The notes: generated by a model not told the origin, from the sequence alone. Shown: positions 127 to 31,998, counted from the first letter of the stretch. The stretch: 38,796 nucleotides of DNA from Halorussus marinus (GCF_004765795.1 NZ_SBIV01000014.1:1-38796); one strand, 5' to 3'. Made by a program: numbers and translations.

Positions 127-137
127 CACTCAGGAGG

Positions 138-8879: not shown

Positions 8880-9055
8880 GAAAATCAACCGATATGTGGT
8901 GGGGGTGGCGGCCCAAAGTTATGTTCGCGGCCACCAGGGCCGAGATGCCAGGCCGCTGGCCAAGCGAGAGTAGGCTGCCACCCGGACGATGGCGTGGGGC
9001 GTGGAGGGTGAAGGAGCAGATCGACATCGTGACTGAGAATGGTGACTGTGGCGAC

Positions 9056-9103
9056 TGTTTATTGTGCCCCCGAGTGGGTGCGGGGCGGTTCCTGTGCTGC
9101 CCC
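9056..9103 (+). promoter_or_regulatory. Conserved-loop hairpin leader H1
   Basis: TGTTTATTG, GCCCC(CG), loop AGTGGGTG, CGGGGC; the 3' arm can instead pair with downstream CTGCCCC. ATG at 9112. Confidence 0.7.
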
Positions 9104-9111
9104 TGATTTGT

Positions 9112-9402
9112 ATGTCTGGTCCGGATAGATACGACGATACGGCAGACGATCACGAACGGTTCGAAGCGGAATTGCTCGCTCAGGATCGGGATGCGCGGTC
9201 ACCATCGACGGCGGATCTTGACGACGAGACGGCCCGCCAGCTGGTTCGAGAGCTACTCGATGCCGGGACAGTCACACCGGTCGTCGACCAGCGGCTCCTC
9301 GTTCACGAGCCCAGCAACACAGCGTTCGAATCGATGCAGCAGCTCGCCGTCTTCCACACAGGCTGGACGGCCGCCCGGGACGCCGGCGAGGGTGATGGGT
9401 GA
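9112..9402 (+). CDS. Hypothetical protein
   Basis: Acidic ORF from ATG 9112 (MSGPDRYDD...); TGATG-coupled to the next gene. Confidence 0.7.
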   Translation: MSGPDRYDDTADDHERFEAELLAQDRDARSPSTADLDDETARQLVRELLDAGTVTPVVDQRLLVHEPSNTAFESMQQLAVFHTGWTAARDAGEGDG

Positions 9403-16972: not shown

Positions 16973-17030
16973 CTCACCGTTTAACCAACAGTCTCCGATG
17001 GAGATGGCTTCTGTTGGTTAACACGGTGAG
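16973..17030. repeat. Inverted repeat TTAACCAACA-N21-TGTTGGTTAA, copy 1 (extended to 19 bp)
   Basis: CTCACCGT-TTAACCAACAG ... CTGTTGGTTAA-C-ACGGTGAG. Confidence 0.8.
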
Positions 17031-18830: not shown

Positions 18831-18868
18831 GGTTTATCGCCCCCCAAGAGGGGTGCGGGGCTTCCCGC
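18831..18868 (+). promoter_or_regulatory. Conserved-loop hairpin leader H4
   Basis: GGTTTATC, GCCCC, AGAGGGGTG (18847-18855), GGGGC; alternative stem GCGGG/CCCGC. Confidence 0.75.
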
Positions 18869-18878
18869 GAGTCCAGAC

Positions 18879-19259
18879 ATGGCGACACTACAAGCTGCGA
18901 CGACGTCAACCGGCGCGATCGTATCGGATCCACAGGCTGTCCGCGAACTCTGTGAGAGCTACTGCTTCGGGACGCTCGACTGGGAGGTCACCGACAAGGG
19001 CGAACTCACCATCTGGGGGTACGATGACTTCGAAGTGTACGAGGCGCGGGAGAACGGCCTCCCGGACTACGAGGGCGGCATCGTGACCCACGAATTCTTG
19101 CGAGAACTTGCCGACCACCTCGAAGCTGACGAGGAACTCGACATCCAGACAGCGGGGTTCACGAAGTGTCGCTTCCCAGTGCTGGCGAAGCGGTACGTCG
19201 TTCGCGACGGCGAAGTCCTCTACGCGGATCTCAGTTCCCCCGAACCAATCGAGGAGTAG
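18879..19259 (+). CDS. Hypothetical protein
   Basis: 126-aa acidic ORF with typical haloarchaeal codon usage. Confidence 0.8.
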   Translation: MATLQAATTSTGAIVSDPQAVRELCESYCFGTLDWEVTDKGELTIWGYDDFEVYEARENGLPDYEGGIVTHEFLRELADHLEADEELDIQTAGFTKCRFPVLAKRYVVRDGEVLYADLSSPEPIEE

Positions 19260-19260
19260 C

Positions 19261-19311
19261 GTTGTTCGTCCCCCGAGAGGGGTGCGGGGCGATCCAGTAG
19301 CGGTCGCCCCG
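19261..19311 (+). promoter_or_regulatory. Conserved-loop hairpin leader H5
   Basis: GTTGTT, CGTCCCCCG, AGAGGGGTG (19276-19284), CGGGGCG; alternative stem CGGGGCGATC/GGTCGCCCCG abutting the GAGGTGA SD. Confidence 0.8.
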
Positions 19312-19326
19312 TGAGGTGATTGCTCG

Positions 19327-19989
19327 ATGGGCCACCGCGCACTCGTTGCGTACGAACGCACAGACGGACAGTACACGCTCCACTACAGCCATTGGGGCGC
19401 AGCGAACCTCAAGCTCAAGCACCGAATTTCGGCTGAGTCGCCGTTCGGTGGCGACGACACCAACTCCAAGTGGGCGAAACAGCTGCTGGCTGAACTGGCC
19501 GATGGCCTCGAGGCAGATGCGGTCGACGGCTACCTCGCTGACGAGGATCGACCGTCGACGGTCGTCGAGCCGAAGCCCCGCGCCACCGGGCTCACCCTCG
19601 ACGAGATCATCGCTGACCATCTCGACTACCTCCACCACGAGGCGTTCTACGTGGTGTCACCGACCTTCGAGGTGACCGCCTACCGGACGCTGTGGTTCGG
19701 CCTGCAGTACGATTCAGAGACAATCGACAACGGTGAGACGGTCGGGAACGGGGCGCTCGCGACCGTTCGGTGGCACGACGGCGAGCCGGTCGGCGACGGC
19801 CATCTGAAGGGGCAGTTCCGGGCGCTGAAGGACGTCGTCGGCGATATGGTCGACAAGGGGGTGTTCACGCCGTCGACGGCGAGGCAGTACCTCAAGCAGA
19901 AACTCGGCGAGTGGGTCGGCGAGCGCCAGGAACTGCGCATCCCTGGTGGTGAATCACCGTCGAAAACTGCGTCAGTCGACCGATTATAA
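19327..19989 (+). CDS. DUF6735-like protein
   Basis: MGHRALVAYER...HYSHWGA N-terminus (family name recalled); GAGGTGA SD. Confidence 0.75.
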   Translation: MGHRALVAYERTDGQYTLHYSHWGAANLKLKHRISAESPFGGDDTNSKWAKQLLAELADGLEADAVDGYLADEDRPSTVVEPKPRATGLTLDEIIADHLDYLHHEAFYVVSPTFEVTAYRTLWFGLQYDSETIDNGETVGNGALATVRWHDGEPVGDGHLKGQFRALKDVVGDMVDKGVFTPSTARQYLKQKLGEWVGERQELRIPGGESPSKTASVDRL

Positions 19990-20026
19990 CGCCAATCCCT
20001 TTCTGAGTCCCCACGAACGTCTGGAT

Positions 20027-20311
20027 ATGTCAGATCGGGCTGATGACGAGGTGCGAGTATGGCTCGTCGAACGTACCTACTCCGATGATGAACAGAACCT
20101 AATCATCCTCACCTACGCGACACCCGACGGCAAACAGTATTATCGGAAAGAGCGGGCACTCACGTCCTTCACCGATATTCGAGATACGACAGCGGCAGTC
20201 GATGCGGGGCCCGGCAATCTCGGCACGGTTGATGACCCCGATCTCCAGGACCAATACGCGGCCGAAGCGCAGCGAATGCAGGAGGTCCACGACCCGAACG
20301 ACGTGATCTGA
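20027..20311 (+). CDS. Hypothetical protein
   Basis: 94 aa from ATG 20027 (VRVWLVERTY...LTYATPDG). Confidence 0.7.
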   Translation: MSDRADDEVRVWLVERTYSDDEQNLIILTYATPDGKQYYRKERALTSFTDIRDTTAAVDAGPGNLGTVDDPDLQDQYAAEAQRMQEVHDPNDVI

Positions 20312-20372
20312 TGCTCACCAGTAGACGTAGTCCCGTGCCATTGGTTATGTCGGAGGAGGCCGTAGACGGGGT

Positions 20373-21122
20373 ATGCGCGAACTCGTCTTCGCCCTCGAAT
20401 ACGAGCCGGGGTGCAATAGGGTGGCGGATGCCCTTGCCGACTACCCCGACGCCCGTGTCCGCTCGCTTTCGTTGCACGCGACTGCCGACCAACTTTGGCG
20501 AGTCGACCATGCCACCGGCACTCCGGACGCACTCGACGCCATCGAGGACGCGTTTCGAAACAGCGACTACTACGCCGACTGTCTCGCCACCGAGGACTGC
20601 GGCGCCACCCAGACCACCCGCGTCCTTGACCGCACGGACGACACGCTCGTCCTCTACTCCGACTGGGAGCGAACCCCCACCTGCGCCTCGGTTCCCCACA
20701 TCGCCCGCGACCATCTCGGGGACGGCGTGCTGTTCGAGACCCGTCATGAGGGCCGCCACTACACGTGGCGACTCATCCACTCGGGCGACGGCGACGTGGC
20801 GGCATTCTTCGACTCCCTCGAGGTTGCCGTCGAAGAATGCGCTCAGATGGAGATGCTCCGCACCGCGGACACGACGACAGCAGCTGGAGGAAGCGACGAA
20901 ACACCGAGCGGATTACCCCCGGCGCAGGAAGCCGCCCTCCAAGCCGCCGTCGAACACGGCTACTACGAGTCGCCCCGCGAGGTCGATGTCGGCGAGTTGG
21001 CCGAGCATCTCGACGTGCCTCGGTCAACACTTACCTACCGGCTCCGTCGGGCGGAAGAACATTTGGCGAAGCAACACGTCGCCGGCGAGCGGGTAGCGGA
21101 AGAACGGCTGGCATCGCACTGA
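20373..21122 (+). CDS. Bat/HTH_10-type transcriptional regulator
   Basis: C-terminal QEAALQAAVEHGYYESPR...LAEHLDVPRSTLTYRLRRAE; Cys/His-rich N-terminal domain. Confidence 0.9.
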   Translation: MRELVFALEYEPGCNRVADALADYPDARVRSLSLHATADQLWRVDHATGTPDALDAIEDAFRNSDYYADCLATEDCGATQTTRVLDRTDDTLVLYSDWERTPTCASVPHIARDHLGDGVLFETRHEGRHYTWRLIHSGDGDVAAFFDSLEVAVEECAQMEMLRTADTTTAAGGSDETPSGLPPAQEAALQAAVEHGYYESPREVDVGELAEHLDVPRSTLTYRLRRAEEHLAKQHVAGERVAEERLASH

Positions 21123-21129
21123 CACCGCG

Positions 21130-21145
21130 GTTGGAATATTCCAAC
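21130..21145. promoter_or_regulatory. Perfect 16-bp palindrome, likely operator for the metal ATPase
   Basis: GTTGGAATATTCCAAC directly before AAAGACATAT, 37-52 nt upstream of ATG 21182. Confidence 0.7.
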
Positions 21146-21181
21146 AAAGACATATCGAACTCCCGCTCCTACCGTGAGGTG

Positions 21182-23545
21182 ATGACAGAGAATTCCGATG
21201 TGGATACAGCGGGACCACCGAACGGCGGCGGGCAGCGGGAGTTGACTGCCCGTCTCACGGTCCCCGAGATGGACTGTCCGTCGTGTGCGCAAAAAGTCGA
21301 CAAGAGCCTCCAGCGCGTCGACGGCGTCGTTGAGGCCACGCTCCAGCCGACCACCGGGACAGCTACCATCAAGTACGATCCGGACCGGACTACCAAAGCC
21401 GACGTCGTCGCGGCGATCGAAGCCGCCGGCTATGACGTGATCGGCGGAGCAGACGACGAAACCGACGAGTCTGCCGACGGCGTCGATATCGCGCCACCTT
21501 CGGAGGTCTGGACGAGTTCTCGCGCGAAGAAGACGTGGCTCGGCGCAGCGTTCGTCATCCTTGGTCTAGTCTTCGAGTTCCTTCTCACCGGCCAGAACGT
21601 CGCGATAGCGAGCATCCTCGACTACCCGCTACACATCGCAGATGTCCTGTTCCTCGGTGCCGTCGCGGCCAGTGGCATCCCGGTCGTCCGCAGCGGGTAC
21701 TACTCCGCGAAGAACCGAAGCCTCGACATCGACCTCCTGATGGGGACAGCGATCATCGCCGCAACCGGCATCGGCTACTTCGTCGAGGCCGCGACGCTGG
21801 CCGTCCTGTTCAGCATCGCCGAACTGCTCGAGGACTATGCGATGGACAGGGCACGGGATTCTCTGCGCGAGCTGATGGAACTCTCGCCCGACGAGGCGAC
21901 CGTCCGTCGCGATGGTGAGGAAGTGACCGTTTCCGTCGAGGAGGTCGACGTTGGCGAGACCGTCGTCGTCCGCCCTGGCGACAAGATTCCGCTCGACGGG
22001 ACGGTCATCGAAGGCGAGAGTGCAGTCGACCAGTCGCCGATCACGGGCGAGAGCGTCCCCGTCGACAAGACCACCGGCGACGAGGTGTACGCCGGCGCGA
22101 TCAACGAAGAGGGGTACCTCGAGGTAGAGGTCACCTCGACCGCTGGCGATTCGACGCTCTCGCGTATTATCGAAATGGTACAGGGCGCACAGGCGAAGAA
22201 GACCGAGTCTGAGCAGTTCGTCGACCGCTTCTCCGGCTACTACACACCCCTCGTCGTCGTGCTGGCAATCCTGACCGCCGCTATCCCGCCGCTGGTTATC
22301 GCTGATCCGGTGGCGGTGGACCTAGCCGGTTACGGGTTCACCTTCGCGGGCGACTGGCAGACGTGGTTCATCCGTGGGCTCACGCTGCTGGTGATCGCCT
22401 GCCCGTGTGCGTTCGTCATCTCCACACCCGTCTCGGTGGTGTCGGGCATCACGAGCGCCGCGAAGAACGGCGTCCTGATCAAGGGCGGAAATTACCTGGA
22501 AGCGATGGGCGAGGTCGACGCCGTCGCCGTCGACAAGACCGGGACGCTCACCAAGGGCGAACTCGCCGTCACCGACGTCGTTCCGGTGGGTGACACTACG
22601 GAGGACGATCTGCTCCGTCGCGCCGCTGGGCTGGAGCAGCGCAGTGAGCATCCCATTGCTACGGCGATTCTCGCCCGTGCTGAGGAGGCGGGCGTGGGCA
22701 ACCTGCCCGACCCGACGGGTTTCGAGAGCCTCACTGGGAAGGGCATCCGCGGCGAGATCGGCGGCGAGACGTACTATGCGGGCAAGCCCGCGCTCTTCGA
22801 GGAACTGGGCTTCGACCTCGCTCGGGCACGCCGCGAGACGGACGGCGGCGTTATGACGGAAGAGGCGACCGAGGGCGAGAACGGGGCGTTCGCCGAGGAT
22901 GCCCTCTCCGCGCTGGAGCGGGAGGGCAAGACTGTCGTTATCGTCGGGACGGAGTCGAAACTGCTGGGTGCGATCGCCATCGCCGACGAGGTTCGCCCGG
23001 CCTCGAAGCGGGCCGTCGAACGCCTGCACGAGCTGGGCGTCGAGCGCGTGGTGATGCTCACCGGCGACAACGAGGGCACCGCCCGCGCAATCGCCGAGCA
23101 GGTCGGGGTCGACGAGTATCGCGCAGAACTCCTGCCCGACGAGAAGGTCGACGCTGTCGAGGAGTTACAGGCAGAGTACGGTGATGTCGCGATGGTCGGT
23201 GACGGCATCAACGACGCGCCCGCGCTCGCCACCGCGGAGGTCGGCATCGCGATGGGCGCGGCCGGCACCGACACCGCTCTCGAGACGGCCGATATTGCGT
23301 TGATGGGCGACGACGTCGGGAAACTCCCGTACCTGTACGACCTGTCGCATACGGCCAACGGGGTGATCCGGCAGAACATCTGGGCGAGTCTCGGCGTGAA
23401 GTTCCTGCTCGCGCTGGGCGTGCCACTGGGGCTGGTCAGCGTTGCGTTGGCGGTCGTTGTCGGTGATATGGGGATGAGCCTCGGTGTCACCGGGAACGCG
23501 ATGCGGTTGTCGCGAATCGAGCCCGATCGGTTCTCCGACACCTGA
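21182..23545 (+). CDS. cadA: Heavy-metal P1B-2 ATPase (Zn/Cd/Pb)
   Basis: HMA MDCPSC, TGES, CPC, DKTGT, SEHP, GDGINDAP, TM Lys and GDMG; start MTENSD at 21182. Confidence 0.9.
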   Translation: MTENSDVDTAGPPNGGGQRELTARLTVPEMDCPSCAQKVDKSLQRVDGVVEATLQPTTGTATIKYDPDRTTKADVVAAIEAAGYDVIGGADDETDESADGVDIAPPSEVWTSSRAKKTWLGAAFVILGLVFEFLLTGQNVAIASILDYPLHIADVLFLGAVAASGIPVVRSGYYSAKNRSLDIDLLMGTAIIAATGIGYFVEAATLAVLFSIAELLEDYAMDRARDSLRELMELSPDEATVRRDGEEVTVSVEEVDVGETVVVRPGDKIPLDGTVIEGESAVDQSPITGESVPVDKTTGDEVYAGAINEEGYLEVEVTSTAGDSTLSRIIEMVQGAQAKKTESEQFVDRFSGYYTPLVVVLAILTAAIPPLVIADPVAVDLAGYGFTFAGDWQTWFIRGLTLLVIACPCAFVISTPVSVVSGITSAAKNGVLIKGGNYLEAMGEVDAVAVDKTGTLTKGELAVTDVVPVGDTTEDDLLRRAAGLEQRSEHPIATAILARAEEAGVGNLPDPTGFESLTGKGIRGEIGGETYYAGKPALFEELGFDLARARRETDGGVMTEEATEGENGAFAEDALSALEREGKTVVIVGTESKLLGAIAIADEVRPASKRAVERLHELGVERVVMLTGDNEGTARAIAEQVGVDEYRAELLPDEKVDAVEELQAEYGDVAMVGDGINDAPALATAEVGIAMGAAGTDTALETADIALMGDDVGKLPYLYDLSHTANGVIRQNIWASLGVKFLLALGVPLGLVSVALAVVVGDMGMSLGVTGNAMRLSRIEPDRFSDT

Positions 23546-23617
23546 CTCTGCGGCGGGAAGTGCGGGCAGGACGCTCCTCTTTCGCGACTTTCCTGCGCTC
23601 TATCGAGACAATTTGCA

Positions 23618-23658
23618 GTTTGTCTGGGGCAGTAGAGACTGAGCCCCACCGCAGGCTC
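23618..23658 (+). promoter_or_regulatory. Leader H6 (divergent loop)
   Basis: GTTTGTCT, GGGGC, AGAGACTG, GCCCC; alternative stem GAGCC/GGCTC; ends CTGATTTG-ATG like H1. Confidence 0.5.
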
Positions 23659-23665
23659 TGATTTG

Positions 23666-24088
23666 ATGCCCGAGAATCCAGACGACGATCCACTCCACGA
23701 TTGCGAGTTAAGTCCCGACGCAGTCCTCGGGACGCGCACCTTCCACGATGTCCTGTTCACTGACGATACCGAGACGCCGGTAAACGTGCTCACCGGCGAG
23801 ACACCCGCACATTCGCAGGCGACCGTCGAGGAAGCGAAGGCGTTCGCTACGAGTATCGATACGGACACACCACAAATCGCGCTCCCGGCCTCTGTCGAGA
23901 CGCAGATCGAAACCCAGAGCCAACCCTACACGGCGGCCGCGTTCTTCCACTTCAAGGCGACCGGGTCGCTCGAACTGCACCGTGCCTACCACGCCGCCTA
24001 CGACTCCGACGCGTTCAGCACCGACTTCGAGGCCGACTACGAGTCGGGCGACCTGACGATCACCGTCGAGCAGACTGCCGATTCCTGA
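23666..24088 (+). CDS. Hypothetical protein
   Basis: 140-aa acidic ORF. Confidence 0.75.
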   Translation: MPENPDDDPLHDCELSPDAVLGTRTFHDVLFTDDTETPVNVLTGETPAHSQATVEEAKAFATSIDTDTPQIALPASVETQIETQSQPYTAAAFFHFKATGSLELHRAYHAAYDSDAFSTDFEADYESGDLTITVEQTADS

Positions 24089-24107
24089 ACGCGGTCTCCC
24101 GAAGCGA

Positions 24108-24181
24108 GGTTTTTCGAGCGCCGGCGATGGGTGCCGGCGCACCGAGCAGACAGCGCCGAGCGGCGCCCGGTGAGTCGGCAC
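24108..24181 (+). promoter_or_regulatory. Conserved-loop hairpin leader H7
   Basis: GGTTTTTC, GCGCCGGC-GATGGGT-GCCGGCGC; alternative stem 24131-24144 with 24168-24181, followed by the GAGGTGA SD. Confidence 0.8.
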
Positions 24182-24196
24182 TCCGAGGTGAACCAG

Positions 24197-24697
24197 ATGC
24201 ATATGGTCATCTACGCGCTGGTGGAAGCACCGACACAGCACGACGCCCTGGTCGAGGGGAAAGCAGTCTTCGACCGTCTCGTCGGCGCGAATCCCCACGG
24301 CTGCGCCGTGTTTGATTACTACGTCACGTTCGATGAAGACGACACGACGGTCGCCGGGAAGGCCCGCTGGGGTGACCTGCCGACGGCGGCCCCCATCAAC
24401 TCAGAGGAGGGCGGTGAACTGCTCGACCGGGCTTGGAAGGCCACGAAAGAGGAGTTTCAGCGGAATCTCGACCGCGTGAAGGAGGCGCTCGACGAGCTCA
24501 GCGACGAGGCGATCATGCGCGACGAGGACCTCGCCCGCCACGCGTTCCACCAGGTCGGCGCGTACGAAGGGCCCTCAATCCCGATGTACGACCAGCACGC
24601 CCAGGGGATTCGGCATCGAGGCCAGCTCGACCGAGTCCTCGAGGAAGACGAGGACAGCCAGACGCTCTGGATCGTCCCCGCAGACGTTCATTTCTGA
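24197..24697 (+). CDS. Hypothetical protein
   Basis: MHMVIYALVE...FDYY...WIVPADVHF; GAGGTGA SD. Confidence 0.8.
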   Translation: MHMVIYALVEAPTQHDALVEGKAVFDRLVGANPHGCAVFDYYVTFDEDDTTVAGKARWGDLPTAAPINSEEGGELLDRAWKATKEEFQRNLDRVKEALDELSDEAIMRDEDLARHAFHQVGAYEGPSIPMYDQHAQGIRHRGQLDRVLEEDEDSQTLWIVPADVHF

Positions 24698-24703
24698 CCA
24701 ACG

Positions 24704-25069
24704 ATGCCACGAATCACCAACTGGTCACGAGAGAGTCGCTCACCAACACTCGCGTATCGAAACACCGAGACTGGAGCGCGAGCTGTTCTACACCGGGCGC
24801 CGGATTCATACCGGTACAAGTGGCGCGGAGCGATCCTCGTCGACGGCTACCCGATCTGGTCGCGAGGCTTCGAGACGAAGGAGGCGACAACGTTCCGGGA
24901 TGCGCTTCGGGAGCGGCCAGCGCCCGAACTGAACTGTCCGGAGTGTCCAAACGACGACGTCCTCGTCGGTGAGAAGACAGCTGATGGAGCGACGGTACAG
25001 CGCTGGTACGACTGTCCGGACTGTGGGTACGAAGCCCCCTCGCGCATCGTCTACGGCCCTGAACGCTGA
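24704..25069 (+). CDS. Hypothetical protein with C-terminal Zn ribbon
   Basis: CPEC...CPDCG. Confidence 0.8.
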   Translation: MPRITNWSRESRSPTLAYRNTETGARAVLHRAPDSYRYKWRGAILVDGYPIWSRGFETKEATTFRDALRERPAPELNCPECPNDDVLVGEKTADGATVQRWYDCPDCGYEAPSRIVYGPER

Positions 25070-25085
25070 GGACGTACACACGCAG

Positions 25086-25132
25086 GGTGTTTTTCGGCCG
25101 GGGCGGAGAGAGTGACCCGGTCGAACCGGGTC
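25086..25132 (+). promoter_or_regulatory. Conserved-loop hairpin leader H8
   Basis: GGTGTTTT, TTCGGCCGGG, loop containing AGAGAGTG, CCCGGTCGAA; alternative stem GACCCGGT/ACCGGGTC. Confidence 0.7.
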
Positions 25133-25141
25133 GGTCCAACA

Positions 25142-25537
25142 ATGAGTCTCGAAGTACTCGACCGACACAGCGAGGCACTGTTCGAGTTCCTCTGGTGTCC
25201 CGTCTGCGGGCAGGAAGTGTTCACCCACATTCCCTTCGAGGGAGTGTTCTGCAAGAACTGTAACACGCAGGTCGTCCTCCAAGAGTCTCGAGAAGACCGT
25301 GGCTACGAGGAGGCTGTGCTCGCGTGCTTCGACACCGACTCAACGTGGAACCTTCACGTCGACGAGAAGCTCCGCCGCGACCTGCCTGACGGCTCGGCAC
25401 GGGCAAAAATCCTCGGTGCACCGGGTGCCTATGAGATCGACTGGTGGAGTCCAGCACCTGGGGAGGATTGGGAGCCGGTCGAGCGTGGTGAATTCGACGA
25501 CGTGGAGGAACCAGACGAGGTGTCACATCTCGCGTAG
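25142..25537 (+). CDS. Zn-ribbon hypothetical protein
   Basis: WCPVCG...FCKNC; ATG 25142. Confidence 0.8.
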   Translation: MSLEVLDRHSEALFEFLWCPVCGQEVFTHIPFEGVFCKNCNTQVVLQESREDRGYEEAVLACFDTDSTWNLHVDEKLRRDLPDGSARAKILGAPGAYEIDWWSPAPGEDWEPVERGEFDDVEEPDEVSHLA

Positions 25538-25564
25538 CGGATTGCAATCCCGCTACGACTGTGT

Positions 25565-25611
25565 GGTGTTGTTTCAGCGCCGGCGATGGGTGCCGGCGCA
25601 CACGCGCCGGC
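25565..25611 (+). promoter_or_regulatory. Conserved-loop hairpin leader H9
   Basis: GGTGTTGTTTC, GCGCCGGC-GATGGGT-GCCGGCGC-ACAC-GCGCCGGC; 26 bp identical to H7. Confidence 0.8.
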
Positions 25612-25619
25612 GAGTACCG

Positions 25620-26204
25620 ATGTCGACACGGAGCCAACTCCGATTCGTCCAACGAGTCGAACAGACCGGTGAGACAGATGGCAGCGCCGACCGCGTCGCG
25701 CAGGTGTACCGGCATTCGGACGGGTATCCCGGGAGCGTCCTCCGGGATCTCGCACAACTGAAAGAGCTGCTCGATGCGACCCGCGCAGAGCGTGGCCCGG
25801 GCTACACGGCGGCGACCTTCGTGTTCCTCGACAAGCTCTCGACGGTCGACCTCTACCTGGATGGCGACCCAGAGCGAACGATCGACGCGGCTCAGCCAGC
25901 GGATCTCCTCGAGCCGTCCAATATGGAGCACCTGGACCAGCCGCTGTTCCTGCTGGGCCACGGCGTCGAGAATCCGGCCGACGGCATCCACGGCGACGAG
26001 GAGTACCTCTACGTCGTCGAACTCCCGACGGAGAACCCGTTCGACGAGCCGACCGAGTGGACAGTCAAAGTGAGCGGTCACTCCGCGTTCCCCCGCTGGG
26101 ACGGCCCGACCGACGAGGCCTTCGAGCAGGCGAGCTGGCAGTTCCACGGGTCGCTCGAGGACGCGCTCGCAGAACTGGTCCGGGACGAAGCAGTCGTCAA
26201 GTAA
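25620..26204 (+). CDS. Hypothetical protein with YxHxDGYP motif
   Basis: MSTRSQLRF...VYRHSDGYP...HGDEEYLYVV, a pattern I associate with phage/plasmid proteins. Confidence 0.75.
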   Translation: MSTRSQLRFVQRVEQTGETDGSADRVAQVYRHSDGYPGSVLRDLAQLKELLDATRAERGPGYTAATFVFLDKLSTVDLYLDGDPERTIDAAQPADLLEPSNMEHLDQPLFLLGHGVENPADGIHGDEEYLYVVELPTENPFDEPTEWTVKVSGHSAFPRWDGPTDEAFEQASWQFHGSLEDALAELVRDEAVVK

Positions 26205-26248
26205 AATCCCAAATCGTATTTATACAGTTAGGGTTTAGAAAGACCCAG

Positions 26249-27199
26249 ATGATTTCGAAGGCCGGACTCGCCGTGCTTGACGCGCTGAGTACCGGCCGTG
26301 AAGCAACACCGGCGGAACTCGCGGCCGAAACCGGATATTCACGAGACCATCTGTACGACGTACTCAACGAATTGCTCGCAGCGGGATTGCTCACAGAAAC
26401 CCGTGGGTCCAGCAATCAGCGTCGTGTCCGCATCGCGGAACATCCAGTTACCGAAGCGTATCGAACGCTGCAGTCGGAGTTCAGCCACGTAGACTGGACG
26501 GAACTGCTCTCCCCAGCCACACTCCGCGTGTGTTGGTATCTCGATAGACCACGACACATCGCTGATATCGCAGACCGGCTCGGAATCACTCGACAAGGTG
26601 TCCACAGCGCGTTATCACCGCTCAAGCACCGAGCACTACTCTCCAGATCTGATTCGAAGTACGCCCTTCATGACGAAGTCTCGCCGCTGTTGGCGTTCGC
26701 CCGGGCTACTGTAGAGCACGAACATCGAGCCCGAGTCCGGGAAATCGCTCCCAGTGCCACGATCGCGTGGTGCGATCCGAAGCGAGCACTCGTTCGCCTG
26801 CAGACCGACGAGGATACGGACGCACTCCAAGCAGCTCCGGACTGGGAGATGACCGGACTGGGTCGGTTTACAGCGTATGGTCTACAGTTTTTCCTCGCCG
26901 GCGAGCCTCCGTTCTGGTATGCTCCGGACGAAGACCTAACGCCTGCTGAAGTCGTATGCCATACGCTCCTTCTGGATAGCGGATCTAGGCGGGTCAGCTA
27001 TTCGATGCTGCTGATCGAGGCGGAGGATATCGATCAGGAGACACTCGTCGAGACCGCACAGTGGTACGACCTGGAACCCACTGTGAAAGCGTTGTATCGG
27101 CCACTTCAGGGCGACTTCGACAGAACAGATGATCTGCCAGTCATCCTCCCAAAAAAGAACGAATATATGGCACTCAAAGACCAGTACGGAGTCGCGTAA
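26249..27199 (+). CDS. Double-HTH (MarR/ArsR-like) regulator
   Basis: Two wHTH repeats (TPAELAAETGYSRDHLY; IADIADRLGITRQGVH); TTTATA at 26219-26224, leaderless. Confidence 0.8.
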   Translation: MISKAGLAVLDALSTGREATPAELAAETGYSRDHLYDVLNELLAAGLLTETRGSSNQRRVRIAEHPVTEAYRTLQSEFSHVDWTELLSPATLRVCWYLDRPRHIADIADRLGITRQGVHSALSPLKHRALLSRSDSKYALHDEVSPLLAFARATVEHEHRARVREIAPSATIAWCDPKRALVRLQTDEDTDALQAAPDWEMTGLGRFTAYGLQFFLAGEPPFWYAPDEDLTPAEVVCHTLLLDSGSRRVSYSMLLIEAEDIDQETLVETAQWYDLEPTVKALYRPLQGDFDRTDDLPVILPKKNEYMALKDQYGVA

Positions 27200-27235
27200 C
27201 ACCAACCACGCAGTCTGGCGGAAAATTGCGATGGG

Positions 27236-28600
27236 TTAGATGATGCCGCCGATCACGAGTAGTCCGACGACGAGCAGCAGCGTCGCAACCACGCTCCCTC
27301 CAGCAAGCAGCTTGTTCTCCATCGCCTTCTCGTGGAGGGGCATCTCGGCGTACTCCTTGCGGAACGCGTCGAGGTTCTCCTCGTCGTAGAAGTACTTCCT
27401 CTTCAGCGCGAACCGTTCGGTCACCGCACAGCCGGTACAGACCGGCTCCCCTTCGAGCCGTTCGGTCTTGATGTGGGTGTCGCAGGCGATCGCCCCGCAG
27501 TTCGGACAGTAGGTGTACGTCTCGTCAACGCCGCTCGTCTCGCAGTGGACGCACCGATGGATGCCGTCCTCCAGAGTGACCCGTGAGGGGCCAGCAGAAT
27601 AGTATTCGTACGGATACGAGTACTCCAGTATCTCTGTCGTCTGCCGAACCTCAGGTAGATACACCGGCTCAATCGATTGCACTGAGATGTCCGAGAGATT
27701 CGGCTCACACGTCTTGTTGTACGTGACGTTATTGTCGCCGGTGTAGGTCACCGTCGTCGTGTGGTAATCCTGGAGGCGGTCAACAGCCCACTCCTTGTAC
27801 TCCGTTTGGGTCTGGCCGAACCGTCGTTCGTCGACGTCGTCGAATACCTCGGTAAACTGCCCGGTATCGAGGGGAACCGTCGCGTGGAAATTCTCGGTGA
27901 CCAGCGTCGCGACTTCGTCGTCGGCCACCTTCGGATGGCCGCGCTCAGCGTGGACAACGAACTGTGTGCGGTCGTTGATCCGGTGGATGACACCGACGGA
28001 GGTCTCAAAGACAGCGTTCGTGTCGGCGGTGATCGCAACCACCGGTCGGAACGTCACTTGCGAGTGCGGCACCGGCAGATCCGCAGCCTCGATGTTCTCG
28101 ATGTCGCGGAACGCCTCCTGGACAGGTGCGTCGACATCCGCCGCCGGGTCGTACGGCCGGAGCGTCTCGTCACAGAGGATCTCGATGCGGCCGTTGTAGA
28201 GATCGAGACCGATCTCGTCGGCGATCTCCCGGAGGTCCTCGCCGTCGATCAGCTCGATGGGAAAGGGATCATCGTTCCGCTGGAGCCGATCTGCGTACTC
28301 CTCGGCAGGGTTCGTAAATCGACCAGTGGTGGCGACCATCCCGCGCTTTGGACCGTCGAAGTCGAAGGTCGCGATGGCGGAATGGAGCTTCTGGACGACC
28401 GGCCGGCCGACCGTCCCGGTGTGCTTACACTCGACGATGATCGCACGCCGGGTGCCGTCGACGACCTCCTCCATGATGACGTCCCGTCCCTCGTCGGCCG
28501 TCCGCTCGGCCTGGCGGACGTTCTCGTAGCCGAGGTTGCGGAAGACGTCCTCCATCAAGTCCTCGAACTCGAATCCCGAGAGGTCGTCCAGTACAGCCAT
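27236..28600 (-). CDS. Mrr-family restriction endonuclease with Zn ribbons and C-terminal membrane helix
   Basis: LSGFEFEDLM..F..LGY...TADEGRD...VECKH...GMVATTGRFT; CVHC/CPNC/CDTH/CTGC; hydrophobic tail; start ATG 28600. Confidence 0.85.
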   Translation of the reverse strand: MAVLDDLSGFEFEDLMEDVFRNLGYENVRQAERTADEGRDVIMEEVVDGTRRAIIVECKHTGTVGRPVVQKLHSAIATFDFDGPKRGMVATTGRFTNPAEEYADRLQRNDDPFPIELIDGEDLREIADEIGLDLYNGRIEILCDETLRPYDPAADVDAPVQEAFRDIENIEAADLPVPHSQVTFRPVVAITADTNAVFETSVGVIHRINDRTQFVVHAERGHPKVADDEVATLVTENFHATVPLDTGQFTEVFDDVDERRFGQTQTEYKEWAVDRLQDYHTTTVTYTGDNNVTYNKTCEPNLSDISVQSIEPVYLPEVRQTTEILEYSYPYEYYSAGPSRVTLEDGIHRCVHCETSGVDETYTYCPNCGAIACDTHIKTERLEGEPVCTGCAVTERFALKRKYFYDEENLDAFRKEYAEMPLHEKAMENKLLAGGSVVATLLLVVGLLVIGGII

Positions 28601-28680
28601 CCGAATGTAATTGGATAGTATCTTGCTATAACTAAATACGTTGCCGACGGTGGCGACGAAGTCCCGACGACGTGAGCGCT

Positions 28681-28729
28681 GGTGTTGTTGTTCGTCCCGC
28701 AAGGGGCGCGGGACGACACATTCGTCCCG
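28681..28729 (+). promoter_or_regulatory. Conserved-loop hairpin leader H10
   Basis: GGTGTTGTTG, TCGTCCCGC-AAGGGGC-GCGGGACGA, then a second TCGTCCCG at 28722-28729. Confidence 0.8.
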
Positions 28730-28737
28730 GGTTACCG

Positions 28738-29184
28738 ATGAGTTCTGAGAGCAACAGCGAGATCGCTCCCGACAACTGGTGGTTGCAACGCCGAACAGAA
28801 GACGACCATTTCGTGTTCGCCTACGAGTTCTCGAAATCCGTCCTCTGCCACGTCCAGCAATCCTCGGACTGGCTGGTCCGGGTCGATCGAGCCGATGGGA
28901 CGATCCTCTTCAGCCAGCACGACCTCCGGTCCCGAGAGGCAGCATTCGCGCTCGCCGAGAGCGTCATGGAGCTCTGTACACTGCTCCATCGGGAGGTCGT
29001 CACGGAGCGGAGCCAAGCGCGAAAGCCGATGTACGTCGGGTCCCGACCAACCGGGACCGCGAGTGCGAGCAATCAGGAAGCCGGACGCGGTCCAGACACC
29101 GCCCGTCGACCGTTGGACTCCCGTCCCCGTCAGCCCCTAGAACGACCACGAGGTATGGGTCACTGGGAGGGTGGGTTTCGATGA
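28738..29184 (+). CDS. Hypothetical protein
   Basis: ATG 28738; ATGA-coupled to the next gene. Confidence 0.65.
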   Translation: MSSESNSEIAPDNWWLQRRTEDDHFVFAYEFSKSVLCHVQQSSDWLVRVDRADGTILFSQHDLRSREAAFALAESVMELCTLLHREVVTERSQARKPMYVGSRPTGTASASNQEAGRGPDTARRPLDSRPRQPLERPRGMGHWEGGFR

Positions 29185-29735
29185 CCGGCGGCCGAGCGTA
29201 CCGCGGTGAACGCTGTATGGGTGGACAGCTGGTGTACACGCCCGATGGCGACGTGCTGGACAAGCACCTCCACGTCCTACGCCGCGCCCCTGGCGGGTTC
29301 GACTGGGGACCACAGGCTGACGAGGCCCGCATCGATCAACTCGCGATCGCGCTGCTGGCCGATTCAGCGACGAAGAACATCGCGCTCGACCACTACAAGG
29401 AATTCGCGCGGTACCTGCGTGAACAGCTCGAGGGCGACGAGTGGCGACTCCCGACCAGCGACATTTCGGCCGATACCTGGTCGCGAGACATCGACGTGGC
29501 TGATGAGACGCCCTCACCGGAGGACGTCGACATCACGGCAGTCGATTTCGACGAGATGACCTTCGCGGTCGAGCGAGCGCTCTGCGAGAAACACGACATT
29601 AGCATCCACCAGAGCGTCGACGACCGCCGCGAGGAACTGGAAGACGCCCGCCAGGCAGTCCAATCAGAAACTACCGACTCGGAGGAGTCACAGACCGACA
29701 CCGGCGGGTTCGAGTTCCCCGCAGCTAGCCAGTAG
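29181..29735 (+). CDS. Divergent DUF6166-like protein
   Basis: RRAPGGFDWG...DQLAIALLAD aligns with NHSPTGFEWG...AQLACGLLLD of the next gene. Confidence 0.7.
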   Translation: MTGGRAYRGERCMGGQLVYTPDGDVLDKHLHVLRRAPGGFDWGPQADEARIDQLAIALLADSATKNIALDHYKEFARYLREQLEGDEWRLPTSDISADTWSRDIDVADETPSPEDVDITAVDFDEMTFAVERALCEKHDISIHQSVDDRREELEDARQAVQSETTDSEESQTDTGGFEFPAASQ

Positions 29736-29759
29736 GGACGGTGAGGGCGTTTCCGGCTC

Positions 29760-29805
29760 TGTTTGTAGAACCCCCGAGAGGGGTGCGGGGGTCACCACTC
29801 CCGCA
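29760..29805 (+). promoter_or_regulatory. Conserved-loop hairpin leader H11
   Basis: TGTTTGT, ACCCCCG-AGAGGGGTG-CGGGGGT; alternative stem TGCGGGGG/CTCCCGCA; 20 bp identical to H5. Confidence 0.85.
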
Positions 29806-29813
29806 ACGTACCG

Positions 29814-30500
29814 ATGAACGGGAACGCCCGACGCACCACGTCGAACGTAGTCCAGACAGAAGCGCTCGCTAACCGTCGCGACGACTCCGTCGAATACGTC
29901 GGCTTTCGCATCGACGGCCAGGCCGTCGTTCTGAATCTCTCCGAACACCAGCGTCTCACCCCGGATCGAAGTCTCGATCTGGTCAACCACAGCCCGACAG
30001 GCTTCGAGTGGGGATACGCTGGAAGCGGGCCCGCACAGCTCGCCTGTGGGCTCCTCCTCGACTACTACAACGACGCCCAGATCGCGAGAGAACACTACAT
30101 TGGGTTCCGGAATTGCGTGATCAGCCAGCTCGAGTGTGACGGCCCGGCGGCGTGCTGGCACCTCACCGGCGAAGAAATCGACGCGGCGATGGCGACGATC
30201 GCCGACGACGTCGTCGCCCTTCCCGACGGCGGGGGGCCGTCACCGACACTCCCCGAGAACTGGCGAACGGTCACTCGCCCTGACCGGCGAGTCTTCCAGC
30301 GGGCTGATCGCGACCACTACATCGTGCTTGGGGAGGGAACCGACGGCTGGCTGGCCGTCCTCTGTAATCAGGGCGATCGCGCCTATCCGGCACCCCTGGC
30401 GAGCCGGACGGTTTCGGACGATGCCGATGTCGAGCAGGCCATCCGGGCCCTGGTCGACGAGAGCAACAACCTCATCGAGCCACCGGAGGGGGAGTGCTGA
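29814..30500 (+). CDS. DUF6166-like protein
   Basis: NHSPTGFEWGYAGSGPAQLA motif (family name recalled). Confidence 0.8.
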   Translation: MNGNARRTTSNVVQTEALANRRDDSVEYVGFRIDGQAVVLNLSEHQRLTPDRSLDLVNHSPTGFEWGYAGSGPAQLACGLLLDYYNDAQIAREHYIGFRNCVISQLECDGPAACWHLTGEEIDAAMATIADDVVALPDGGGPSPTLPENWRTVTRPDRRVFQRADRDHYIVLGEGTDGWLAVLCNQGDRAYPAPLASRTVSDDADVEQAIRALVDESNNLIEPPEGEC

Positions 30501-30631
30501 TGGAGACAATTCGGCTGTTACGAGCCACCCACCAGCTGCTCGAACGCGGGGTCGAGGCGCTCGAGAAAATCGGTCGCGAACTGGAGCGGTACAACGACTG
30601 GCAAGAGCAGACTGACGGCACCGACTCGTGA
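30500..30631 (+). CDS. 43-aa helical small protein (not in the ORF track)
   Basis: METIRLLRATHQLLERGVEALEKIGRELERYNDWQEQTDGTDS; TGATG overlap upstream, GTGA overlap downstream, GGAGG SD. Confidence 0.7.
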   Translation: METIRLLRATHQLLERGVEALEKIGRELERYNDWQEQTDGTDS

Positions 30632-31293
30632 CTCAGACACGTTCTCCCGGCCAGCGGCGGAGTACCGGGTTCCAGTACACGCGCACTCCCGAGGGGTGCT
30701 CGTGTCCCATTCATCGCGACGGCCAGCCGGTCACGGCGCCGCTCGGCCTGCGGTTCGCAGAGCGCGTCCATATCGAATCGATCCCACGGCACGTCGCCGG
30801 CGCGATCTACGAAGCCCATCATTCCTATATGGACAGTGTCCCGCGGACGAACCTCGTTCATCACGGGCTCTGTTACCAGGACCAGCTACTGGGTGCGATT
30901 ACGTGGCGCTATCCACTGATTCGCTCGCTGGACTACGACGGCACGCGATACGAGGGTGACGAGATCGTCGAGGCAGCACGGATCTGCATCGGCGTCGACT
31001 TCCCGAATCTCGCCTCCGCCGCCCTCGCCCGGTCGATGGAACGATTCGTGCGTCGGCACGGTCGGCGGCGAGGCGTTCGCCTTCTGCTGACGTTCGTGCG
31101 AGCTGACTTCGACGGCTCGATGATTAAAGCGCTCAGAGACAAGGGCTGGCACTGCGCCGGGAAAACGGAACCCGGACAGGCAGGTAACCGGCCCGACAAG
31201 CAAATCCGAGAGCGGCCGAAGTGGCGGTTCCTCTGTGAAGTTCCTGATGAGTCTGAGCGGGAACAGTCCTCACTCGGACGGTGGGCTCCGTGA
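30628..31293 (+). CDS. Mom-like GNAT-fold DNA modification protein
   Basis: HHSYM...HGL...LLGAI...EAARICI...PNLASAALARS...LLLTF...GSMIKA...GW follows the Mu Mom/XF1762-like layout (HY, ELxR, PxNxES, SFAD, GxxYxAxxW/F). Confidence 0.6.
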   Translation: MTQTRSPGQRRSTGFQYTRTPEGCSCPIHRDGQPVTAPLGLRFAERVHIESIPRHVAGAIYEAHHSYMDSVPRTNLVHHGLCYQDQLLGAITWRYPLIRSLDYDGTRYEGDEIVEAARICIGVDFPNLASAALARSMERFVRRHGRRRGVRLLLTFVRADFDGSMIKALRDKGWHCAGKTEPGQAGNRPDKQIRERPKWRFLCEVPDESEREQSSLGRWAP

Positions 31294-31832
31294 CTACGAA
31301 TGCTCGTCTCGATGAGTTTGCAGCAGAGGAAGACTCGGACAACCAGCCGGAGCGCGATCCATCTGTAGTCGAGCGACTGTTGGACCCGATATCACCGGCC
31401 CAGGGGCTGCGACTCATCCCCGGCCAAGGTGACCCGGTGTACCTCCAAAACAGGGGAACTGAACGCTACCTGTTCCGGGATGCCCACGAGCGGTGGTTCA
31501 TCCTCCAGCCCTCGGCCAAGGAGTCGGTCGACGACTTCGTTCGCTGGGTGTATCTCCCCGACGGCAAACCCGCCGAGATTGCCCGGACAGCGATCCGTCA
31601 ACGGACGGTTCGCGGCTACCGGTACGTTCAGCGAAGCGGAGCTCCCGAGCCGGTTGGGACGACGGTGACAGCGATGTACGTCAGTGAGCCCTGGCCCGAC
31701 GATGTCTACGAGTGTGGATCCTGCGGAGCCGAGTTCGAGTCGCCCCATGCTCACGCCCTTCACTGCTGGGAGGACCATCCCTGGGTTCCGAACCCGGAGC
31801 AGGTTCGGCTACGCCGCTCCAGCACCGAGTAA
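31290..31832 (+). CDS. Hypothetical protein with C-terminal C2H2-like Zn finger
   Basis: YECGSCGAEFES....LHCWEDH; GTGA overlap with the upstream stop. Confidence 0.75.
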   Translation: MTTNARLDEFAAEEDSDNQPERDPSVVERLLDPISPAQGLRLIPGQGDPVYLQNRGTERYLFRDAHERWFILQPSAKESVDDFVRWVYLPDGKPAEIARTAIRQRTVRGYRYVQRSGAPEPVGTTVTAMYVSEPWPDDVYECGSCGAEFESPHAHALHCWEDHPWVPNPEQVRLRRSSTE

Positions 31833-31865
31833 CGACAGTGCGACAGTTTCCCGACGGTGGTTCGA

Positions 31866-31906
31866 TTAACCAACAGACAGCCGCTTCCTAGGTTAGTGTT
31901 GGTTAA
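31866..31906. repeat. Inverted repeat TTAACCAACA-N21-TGTTGGTTAA, copy 2
   Basis: Arms 31866-31875 and 31897-31906; same 21-nt spacing as copy 1 but a different spacer sequence. Confidence 0.8.
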
Positions 31907-31909
31907 CGT

Positions 31910-31986
31910 GGTGTTGTTGTTGCGCCCGGCAGAGGGGCGCAGGGCGCGAGACGATGCAGGCAGCCGTCGATGAGCGTTCCTGCGTC
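31910..31986 (+). promoter_or_regulatory. Conserved-loop hairpin leader H12
   Basis: GGTGTTGTTGTT, GCGCCC, AGAGGGGCG, GGGCGC; alternative stem 31936-31947 with 31974-31986, directly followed by the GAGGTGA SD. Confidence 0.8.
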
Positions 31987-31998
31987 GAGGTGACTACG

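Follow-up and report, generated by a model that had tools for sequence, protein, structure and literature searches.

PeSL cassettes of T4-type phages and the promoter/hairpin/RBS cassettes of bacterial conjugative plasmids combine a promoter-like box with small covarying hairpins and are repeated before many small genes of unknown function. Their boundaries double as recombination points, as do those of the cassette described here. Two other systems, the Frpo/ssi single-stranded DNA promoters found in the leading regions of conjugative plasmids and the DNA-hairpin early promoters of phage N4, share further features with it, namely strand-specific hairpins before early or establishment-type genes, with the structure kept and the stem sequence variable; in Frpo, the hairpins are long and the promoter boxes are rebuilt within their stems. 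For haloarchaeal elements, the report on halovirus HF2 describes intergenic repeats (class I, 58 bp; class II, 29 bp) that were shown to be promoters, with mapped start sites and a TATA box at -26 (PMC8707807).

We analyzed a stretch of 38,796 nt from Halorussus marinus (GCF_004765795.1, NZ_SBIV01000014.1:1-38796; hereafter the window), in which an earlier note, covering positions 18831..31986, had described gene leaders built from three complementary segments, A, B and A′. The leaders counted here are all copies of one cassette, and no description of it was found in the literature searched. Their three-way complementarity looks more like the mark of a shared start-of-gene cassette than like a proven RNA switch. 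The reading that we prefer, with a probability of roughly 40%, is that they are copies of one portable, normally silent start-of-gene cassette that belongs to a widespread haloarchaeal plasmid family and acts as tandem RNA hairpins. Its main rival is a promoter-embedded DNA palindrome.

Nine copies of one cassette

The nine leaders of the window (g9112, H1, H5 and H7 to H12; H2-H4 and H6 of the earlier note were not placed) can be aligned almost without gaps. One of them, at 9058, lies outside the range of that note. Every copy opens with a G-TTT(T/A)T-C box and closes with a start codon; in between are GC hairpins surrounding a G-rich motif that is conserved (GAGGGGTG-like). More precisely, the T-rich box is followed by arm A (C-rich), by a purine-rich stretch whose end is the conserved G-run (X, the GAGGGGTG-like motif), by arm B (G-rich), by a short spacer and by arm A′ (C-rich), which ends either 8-12 nt 5′ of the ATG or just before the SD of a further stretch leading to the start codon. 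Two hairpins are predicted, hairpin I from A with X (or from A with B where X and B are merged) and hairpin II from B with A′. Among 88 representatives, the box consensus has a G before it (-6), T at 66-93% over five positions and a C after it. The box is located 0-3 nt upstream of the stems, which are 5-8 bp long, and is unpaired in the supported folds. The G-rich "loop" motif is kept across copies with differing stems. Copies stand at the heads of gene groups and are absent before overlapping or tightly coupled genes (Table 1).

Table 1 Cassette copies of the window and an adjoining inverted pair. R1 is a covariance model of the leader; A, B and A′ are the arms.
Feature	Position	Strand	Details
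g9112 cassette copy, before ORF 9112-9402	9058..9114	+	T-box 9058-9063; hairpin I 9064-9081; hairpin II 9082-9103; ATG 9112; R1 match 9049-9089, E 1.9e-4; folded
H1 leader	18833..18881	+	T-box 18833-18838; hairpin I 18839-18843/18850-18854; hairpin II (B:A′) 18855-18859/18864-18868; ATG 18879; R1 E 5.9e-6
H5 leader, DUF6735 gene	19261..19329	+	T-box 19261-19267; hairpin I 19271-19274/19279-19282; hairpin II (B:A′) 19284-19312; SD GAGGTGA; ATG 19327
H7 leader	24109..24199	+	T-box 24109-24115; A 24118-24125; B 24131-24144; A′ 24168-24181; SD GAGGTGA; ATG 24197
H8 leader, DUF7567 gene	25089..25144	+	T-box 25089-25095; A 25096-25102; B 25113-25122; A′ 25125-25134; ATG 25142
H9 leader	25568..25622	+	T-box 25568-25575; A 25577-25584; B 25592-25599; A′ 25604-25611; ATG 25620; exact triple
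H10 leader, in gap after divergent Mrr-type endonuclease gene	28684..28740	+	T-box 28684-28693; A 28692-28699; B 28709-28716; A′ 28722-28729; ATG 28738; exact triple; orthologues found
H11 leader, DUF6166 gene	29762..29816	+	T-box 29762-29767; hairpin I 29772-29775/29780-29783; hairpin II 29784-29792/29797-29805; ATG 29814; R1 E 3.3e-5
H12 leader	31913..32001	+	T-box 31913-31922; hairpin I 31922-31927/31935-31940; B 31936-31947; A′ 31974-31986; SD GAGGTGA; start most likely ATG 31999
Inverted pair TTAACCAA ... TTGGTTAAC, directly 5′ of the H12 T-box (putative operator)	31865..31907		Operator-like look

Occurrence on haloarchaeal plasmids

The R1 model was run on the contigs of this genome and on 82 related plasmid loci (1.54 Mb). 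In the genome, 16 copies were found on two plasmid contigs, nine on the contig of the window (C14) and seven on the plasmid-like C7; the only chromosomal matches were three weak ones (E>0.7). The related loci hold 394 copies at E<=0.05, about five per 20 kb, and among the matches listed the orientation is that of the gene strand in 300 of 300. For H1, 31 distinct orthologous leaders were collected besides that of the window (32 rows). Of 301 sampled Halobacteria genomes, 107 carry the DUF7567 gene, a marker that adjoins the cassette; the gene also occurs in 104 plasmid records.

The H12 protein read from 31999 aligns with phrog_13083 starting at residue 1. Judged from its sequence, the inverted pair upstream of the H12 box looks like an operator; in 10 checked loci, the same 9-mer ends 2 nt before the R1 match (e.g., 16758-16766 and 16768-16807 in locus L034). 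Neighboring genes include a T4SS coupling-protein-like ORF in the window, an ArdC-like gene in pHV4 and a Mom-like gene, from which we would guess that the downstream genes are co-regulated establishment genes.

Complementarity and predicted folds

The A-B-A′ complementarity pointed out in the earlier note is real. The only exact 8-nt A/B/A′ triples in the whole window are those of H9 (GCGCCGGC / GCCGGCGC / GCGCCGGC) and H10 (TCGTCCCG / CGGGACGA / TCGTCCCG), and the pairs quoted for H5 (CGGGGCGATC/GGTCGCCCCG), H7 and H12 are present in constrained folds. When the partner segment was subjected to 1000 mononucleotide shuffles, B:A′ had p<0.02 in six of the nine leaders (H5, H7, H8, H9, H10 and H12) and A:B had p<0.05 in six (H7-H12), with both pairings beating the shuffles in five (for H7, p was 0.006 for B:A′ and 0.012 for A:B). 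It should be noted that A:B is a C-run against a G-run in g9112, H1, H5 and H11, and is no better than the shuffles in three of these four (g9112, H1 and H5), and that the arms of H7 and H9 carry the palindrome CGCCGGCG, so that any two copies pair trivially. Across 88 non-redundant orthologous leaders, with partners from other gene families as the control, cognate partners ranked better than non-cognate ones (median rank 0.07 for A:B and 0.088 for B:A′, 0.5 being expected). Families with unrelated arm sequences keep the triple, as had been stated for the differing arms of the window, and the complementarity of A′ is kept in orthologous leaders of other haloarchaea, the loss of which would, according to the earlier note, have refuted the design.

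The two hairpins had also been described as mutually exclusive. This is the case in H7, H8 and H9, where arm B is shared, but not in the other six leaders, whose minimum-energy folds contain two tandem hairpins; both can coexist there because arm A has its own G-rich partner, the G-run inside the supposed loop, while B pairs with A′. The B:A′ conformer is more stable than A:B in all nine leaders, by 3.0 to 13.2 kcal/mol, and the gap is smallest for H9 (-19.1 kcal/mol for A:B vs -22.1 for B:A′). In the nine window leaders, neither fold hides the SD or the start codon and no terminator is formed, a U-run following neither hairpin in either conformer. A search of positions 8900-32100 against Rfam 15 returned only two matches at E<=1, neither of them at a leader. 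The identification of the element itself as an intrinsic terminator was rejected: on the gene strand, the hairpins follow the T-run instead of preceding it, and the opposite strand would read a hairpin and then an A-run.

Covariation of the two helices

The helix under the clearest constraint is B:A′ (hairpin II). In the H5 family (32 sequences), pairing is kept in 97.3% of cells for the two helices together and in 96.3% for the 11 B:A′ pairs; all six variable B:A′ pairs change between GC and GU or between GU and AU only, always on the A′ side. In H8, the most diverse family, B:A′ is paired in 87.2% of cells, which 6 of 500 shuffles equal, and three of its pairs are altered on both sides, whereas the covariation of A:B does not exceed that of shuffles (211 of 500 attain the observed level). 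In two relatives of H1 (L078 and L111), B has become GAGGGC and A′ GCCCTC or GCCCTT, with A remaining CCCC, and in two relatives of H12 (L046 and L105), A, B and A′ are all altered together. One double change in the H5 family (L067, pair 17-39) is in favor of A:B.

Mismatches in the helices are more often G.T than A.C (55 vs 20 in B:A′, 23 vs 11 in A:B), a bias expected for plus-strand RNA. The excess could also arise if arm B were frozen for another reason while the C-rich A′ drifted from C to T, and template-switch correction in DNA can be another source of double changes in palindromes. Natural variants of H9 lack 27 nt between A and A′, and six distinct variants have 17-19 nt from the box to the ATG.

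Published start sites and reads

Published dRNA-seq tables contain no sense start site at seven pHV4 copies, none is present at a second pHV4 cluster in the published 5′-end map, and two pNRC100 leaders have none even in the unfiltered list. The cassette-headed genes appear to be silent in laboratory cultures of two model haloarchaea. One mapped Halobacterium start (pNRC100 145999), at a leader outside the canonical copies, lies directly after a GTTGTTC heptamer and not 25 nt downstream. A contig from a run labeled RNA-Seq spans an entire H9-type leader and both flanks (loose ends 25563 and 25612), which weakly favors transcription of A, X and B, DNA carry-over being possible.

The T-rich box resembles the boxes GAGATTTTTCACC and GAGATTTATCACC, centered at -28 in a Haloferax start-site table. 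As a second mechanism, the earlier note had suggested that A-B might fold only in the DNA, with B-A′ left as a hairpin at the 5′ end of the mRNA. If the box is a TATA box with the usual 27-28-nt spacing, the start would fall about 25 nt after it, just past B and not in the loop; hairpin I and arm B would then be untranscribed, and B-A′ would not be intact in that RNA.

Discussion

We propose that the cassette most likely functions in RNA, as two tandem GC-rich hairpins that would together label the beginning of every small transcription or translation unit. A:B would be a weaker alternative, competing only in the three copies whose hairpins share arm B. A likely job is that of a common handle for 5′-end protection or processing and for co-regulating a set of plasmid genes that are normally silent; it is probably not an on/off switch flipped by a ligand or a protein. 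The cassette is widespread rather than a local oddity. If it is a common control handle, many uncharacterized haloarchaeal plasmid genes could be turned on through it and thereby investigated, and it would provide a concrete system for how archaeal mobile elements time gene expression.

It is possible, if rather unlikely, that the cassette is a DNA promoter instead. The T-rich box would then be the TATA box, the A-loop-B inverted repeat would fill the spacer between it and a start just after B, and A′ would occupy positions near +5 to +12 in a 5′ UTR of 15-25 nt (or 50-60 nt). The palindromes around the start site would make a GC-rich promoter conditional; it might depend on supercoiling or cruciform extrusion, for instance, or on a plasmid-encoded factor that recognizes the G-rich motif (about -12 to -7). 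Besides its likeness to the Haloferax boxes, the T-rich box is the sole AT-rich element within the 75 nt upstream of the hairpins, and both conservation and the homology breakpoints of relatives begin there. In all nine copies, B ends 23-27 nt after the box despite stems of 5-8 bp and loops of 7-14 nt, and the A+T content steps from 8-17% (+18 to +24) to 51-57% (+25/+26), features that plain homology of the copies could also explain. H10 needs its own promoter because the preceding gene is divergent, H12-type copies have an operator-like inverted repeat adjoining their box, and proven repeated promoter modules exist in halovirus HF2 (PMC8707807). The published starts may argue the other way, both by their lack at the pHV4 and pNRC100 leaders and by the position of the one at 145999, and in the six short H9 variants the usual spacing would place the start inside the gene. 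The G.U-type variation and the B:A′ covariation are more easily explained in RNA, and no single sequence-specific repressor fits because the arms differ between copies. A bolder form of the promoter explanation, which we regard as distinctly improbable, is a new archaeal promoter type whose TATA-to-start spacer is taken up exactly by a covarying DNA palindrome, with a second palindrome centered on the start site; it would fire only on hairpin extrusion or with the help of a plasmid factor that recognizes the G-rich loop once exposed, as might happen right after plasmid entry into a new cell. If this is true, archaea would have their own counterpart of the hairpin-dependent early promoters, one that sets the timing of a whole set of plasmid establishment genes.

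The earlier note had suggested that the leaders form a bistable RNA switch, with a factor bound to the loop flipping it, and this idea fared poorly. In a bistable or kinetic switch, A:B would form first during transcription and later be displaced by A′ or held by a factor on the G-rich loop, changing the fate of the mRNA. The helices do exclude each other in H7, H8 and H9, with H9 showing the smallest energy gap, A:B is the minimum-energy structure in some H8 relatives, the loop motif is kept among copies with differing stems, and compensatory double changes for A:B occur, the one in H5 and one in H10 (outer pair T-A to A-T). Such a switch nevertheless seems improbable, given pairings that are not exclusive in six of nine copies, B:A′ favored in nine of nine, folds that neither sequester the SD or AUG nor make a terminator, A:B covariation in H8 at the level of shuffles, the missing Rfam match, and natural variants without the A-to-B part or without A′. 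A further explanation is that the A / reverse-A / A pattern is a mutational by-product, a template-switching scar at a quasi-palindrome kept complementary by DNA-level correction; no more than the T-box, the G-rich motif and perhaps a single hairpin would then matter. Variants within the same flanks differ precisely by the presence or absence of 27 nt delimited by the direct repeats A and A′ (L067 vs L018/L021), L063 has A-loop-B without A′, and a relative that joins 28602 directly to 29759 indicates the gain or loss of entire cassettes at the box. We find a by-product very improbable all the same: the triple is kept across families with unrelated arms, cognate partners outrank non-cognate ones, and the plus-strand G.T bias is unexpected from a purely double-stranded process.

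Compared with known systems, the cassette resembles the HF2 repeats, as far as the accessible part of that report describes them, in being a short conserved module with an AT-rich box upstream of many genes of a haloarchaeal mobile element, with conservation up to and around the start site; in contrast, the HF2 starts are mapped, whereas the published maps show none at the cassette, and the HF2 modules are described there as conserved in sequence rather than as covarying GC stems, with no A-B-A′ complementarity reported in that part (PMC8707807). In attenuators and riboswitch expression platforms, too, the middle arm has two possible partners, one upstream and one downstream, but the leaders have no U-run, SD/AUG occlusion, aptamer-like conserved core or Rfam match, and the alternatives are exclusive in only three of nine copies. 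A single-stranded DNA promoter of the Frpo/ssi type was considered and rejected, as the T-rich box is outside the stems (0-3 nt upstream, unpaired), the stems are 5-8 bp and there is no long box-rebuilding hairpin; these haloarchaeal plasmids are not known to be transferred in single-stranded form. Finally, the PeSL and conjugative-plasmid cassettes are bacterial sigma-70 elements, whereas the cassette described here has an archaeal host, G+C-rich hairpins, a conserved G-run motif and a promoter role that is only putative.

The leader cassette and its setting

Nine leaders in the window (H1, H5, H7 to H12 and the leader of gene g9112) follow one plan when their intergenic DNA is read: a T-rich box (GTTTATC, GTTGTTC or GTTTTTC), an arm A that forms a GC stem, a segment rich in purines whose end reads GGGGTG, GGGTG or GGGGCG, an arm B, a short spacer, a third arm A' and the ATG. 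In three of the nine, a longer segment with a GAGGTGA Shine-Dalgarno sequence precedes the ATG. The leaders align nearly without gaps and hence are copies of one cassette.

The window is a complete contig (C14, 38.8 kb) from a 3.76-Mb haloarchaeal assembly. Its array consists of mostly unknown genes, all in one direction, broken up by a P-type ATPase gene and the HTH_10 gene beside it, by a conserved wHTH regulator at 26249-27199 and by a divergent gene for an Mrr-type endonuclease. The ATPase and its neighbouring regulator, which have no cassette leaders, are probably inserted cargo. ORF1 matches the T4SS coupling-protein domain PF02534 at 23 bits, which exceeds the curated cut-off, and has HerA-like and Pox_D5-like matches, both sub-threshold; such an ORF suggests a transfer-type plasmid or an integrative element. 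Comparison with PHROGs added one Mom-like match, one unknown family and nothing further, and the H12 gene, when compared with phages, gave only distant tailed-halovirus homologues, themselves without transcription maps.

Coordinates of features in the window and at related plasmid loci (L numbers)
Feature	Location	Remarks
T4SS coupling-protein ORF (ORF1)	108-4508	1466 aa
Start codons of the nine cassette genes	9112, 18879, 19327, 24197, 25142, 25620, 28738, 29814, 31999	
Inverted pair TTAACCAA ... TTGGTTAAC	16980-17022; 31865-31907; L112 17123-17165	fixed 34-nt offset
Gene array	18.8-33.2 kb	DUF6735, DUF7568, DUF7567, DUF6166 (x2), Mom-like
HVO_2928_N/HTH_10 regulator and heavy-metal P-type ATPase	20373-23545	within array
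Leader of ORF 23666	23625-23665	
Homology breaks of relatives	24109; 25563	at box
Junction in one relative	28602 joined to 29759	
Hairpin across DUF7567 stop codon	25535-25556	TAGCGGATTGCAATCCCGCTA
Second HMA/E1-E2 ATPase	37749-38711	truncated, running off contig end
H9-type leaders lacking 27 nt	L031 9420-9452; L017, L027, L067, L073, L097, L098, L078	
Cassette-headed cluster on pHV4 (L112)	45.3-53.8 kb	ArdC-like ssDNA-binding protein, DUF6610, two DUF6166 genes

Three further elements were observed near the cassettes. Ahead of ORF 23666, the leader combines a T-rich box (GTTTGTC) with a TGGGGC/GCCCCA hairpin whose loop measures 12 nt; this leader lacks the G-run motif and A', was left unscored by the covariance model described below and may be a degenerate copy. 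The hairpin across the DUF7567 stop codon is near-perfect, and the H9 box comes next with its T-rich run, the two forming a terminator-like arrangement. The inverted pair looks like an operator for a plasmid regulator; at the 10 loci checked, the right half stops 2 nt short of an H12-type cassette match, and no cassette adjoins the pair at 16980.

Relatives and plasticity of the cassette

Of the 301 Halobacteria genomes sampled, 107, in 48 of 80 genera, carry DUF7567, which also occurs in 104 plasmid records, including Haloarcula marismortui pNG500, Halobacterium salinarum R1 pHS3 and Haloferax volcanii pHV4. The relatives sampled comprised 30 loci with 1.5-kb flanks, 80 named loci with flanks of at most 10 kb and three annotated plasmid stretches. 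Using the genes behind eight leaders in tblastn, we obtained 308 upstream sequences, in every family of which the T-box was kept; 253 of them differed from one another and continued for 32 nt or more past the box, and these were reduced to 88 representatives. Four public RNA runs gave Logan contigs that were fragmentary and came from mixed relatives; having no starts, ends or strands, they cannot locate a start site.

A covariance model built from the box and A-loop-B recovered nine copies on C14, seven on C7, a second plasmid-like contig of the same genome, and only three chromosomal matches, all weak (E 0.75-0.98). Across 82 loci (1.54 Mb) it found 394 copies at E<=0.05, and the cassette lay on the strand of its gene in all 300 of the matches listed.

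The cassette and its gene behave as one unit; the homology of relatives breaks at the box. In six distinct H9-type leaders, precisely the 27 nt that separate direct repeat A from direct repeat A' are missing, an absence that suggests slippage or recombination between these 8-9-nt repeats. The box-to-ATG distance in the shortened leaders is 17-19 nt, and one of them has the same flanking context as the full-length versions. Variant L063 has A-loop-B and no A'.

Base pairing within the leaders

The earlier note had described an A-B-A' design in which B pairs with either A or A', giving mutually exclusive hairpins. The complementarity stood in part, with exact 8-nt triples only at H9 and H10. When the partner segment was shuffled 1000 times, B:A' pairing proved above chance in H5, H7, H8, H9, H10 and H12 (p<0.02) and A:B pairing in H7 to H12 (p<0.05), both being so in five of the nine leaders; A:B in g9112, H1 and H5 sets a C-run against a G-run and did not exceed the shuffles. 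The arms of H7 and H9 contain the palindrome CGCCGGCG, and therefore any two copies are complementary. Under constrained folding, the B:A' conformer was the stabler in all nine leaders, by 3.0 (H9) to 13.2 kcal/mol (H5). Exclusivity held for H7, H8 and H9, since only there is arm B common to both helices, and failed in g9112, H1, H5, H10, H11 and H12, whose minimum-energy fold contains two coexisting hairpins, A pairing with the G-run of the supposed loop and B with A'.

The loss of A' complementarity from orthologues envisaged in the earlier note was not seen, the pairing being kept in the leaders of relatives. Among the 88 representatives, cognate arms pair better than arms borrowed from other gene families, by 4.6 kcal/mol for A:B (median rank 0.07, 34/88 below 0.05) and 5.2 kcal/mol for B:A' (0.088, 38/88). 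In the H8 family (20 sequences), 87.2% of cells were paired for B:A', a level reached by 6 of 500 shuffles, with both-sided changes in three pairs; the figure for A:B was 72.2% (211 of 500), and flanking pairs were often broken. In the H5 family (32 sequences), A:B was paired in 97.9% of cells (17 of 500), with one double change (L067), and hairpins I (A with the G-run) and II (B:A') in 97.3% (454 of 500), with one-sided changes only, GC/GU or GU/AU on the A' side of B:A'. We point out that the H5 counts use these named structures; the RNAalifold consensus had paired the T-box by G.U pairs. B and A' change together, with A unchanged, in H1 relatives L078 and L111, and all three arms change jointly in H12 relatives L046 and L105. 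Helix mismatches favour G.T over A.C, by 55 vs 20 in B:A' and 23 vs 11 in A:B. From these sequence comparisons, B:A' is the better-supported helix.

Several other signatures were considered and rejected. GNRA tetraloops made up 9 of the 31 four-nt loops, which in so purine-rich a region is not clearly above expectation. As to a TATA upstream of a start placed at the T-box, the slight rise in A+T between -34 and -31 coincides with the stop codons of upstream genes; positions -37 to -22 are GC-rich in 7/9 window leaders and weakly to moderately AT-rich in H7 (GATTCCTGAA) and H12 (TAGGTTAGTGTT). The GTT box has no RYYYAAC partner as in integron attC sites, the G-rich loop lies 30-40 nt from the ATG, too far for a functional Shine-Dalgarno sequence, and the G-runs number only two, too few for a G-quadruplex.

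Discussion

Of four readings, we tentatively place first, at a probability of about 40%, an RNA-level leader cassette with tandem hairpins. Next, and rather unlikely, is a promoter cassette that works at the DNA level and has palindromes around the start. The box is the sole AT-rich element in the 75 nt upstream and resembles TATA boxes among the consulted entries of the Haloferax start-site table, centred at -27/-28; B ends 23-27 nt past the box in all nine copies, and base composition flips at +25/+26. This geometry would put the start directly past B, so that A, the G-run motif and B would be promoter DNA and only A' RNA. However, the copies' homology to one another may be enough to explain both the constant spacing and the AT step, and the leader variants of 17-19 nt do not match TATA spacing. 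Published start maps are either against a promoter or neutral. Among the consulted entries of Table S1 of Babski et al. (2016, PMC4983044), pHV4 45069-53765, a stretch of about 8.7 kb that holds seven cassette copies, has no forward start except one inside an IS element, and a second pHV4 cluster has no reverse start. Two cassette-like pNRC100 leaders have no start among the entries listed, unfiltered output included, by Ten-Caten et al. (2018, PMC6161675). At L113 (pNRC100 145992-145999), whose leader is not a canonical copy, the strongly supported start TSS_13966_3 (145999) is the base directly past the GTTGTTC heptamer, with no obvious TATA box 27 nt upstream. None of six cassette motifs matched the Haloferax table's '70 bp upstream' column, within the entries consulted, and pHV4 gene names are absent among the entries listed in the permissive Haloferax sheet (PMC6161675). 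Because these tables, within the entries consulted, lack starts at cassette copies, the cassette genes look silent in culture.

The earlier note had offered a bistable RNA switch or an A-B hairpin formed only in DNA. A true bistable or kinetic switch, ranked third, is improbable and, of the four readings, the hardest hit by the evidence: exclusive pairing is confined to three of the nine copies, the leaders have no terminator, neither fold occludes the SD or the AUG, and A:B shows no covariation in H8, the most diverse family. Ranked last, and very doubtful, is that the arrangement is a by-product of template switching.

Rfam gave no match at the leaders, and the literature searched held no description of the cassette, DUF7567, DUF7568 or DUF6735. 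Bacterial and phage analogues include PeSL cassettes, repeated promoter-hairpin leaders on conjugative plasmids, Frpo/ssi and the N4 hairpin promoters. Among haloarchaea, the closest precedent in the part of the literature consulted is provided by the intergenic repeats of HF2, which are mapped promoters (PMC8707807).
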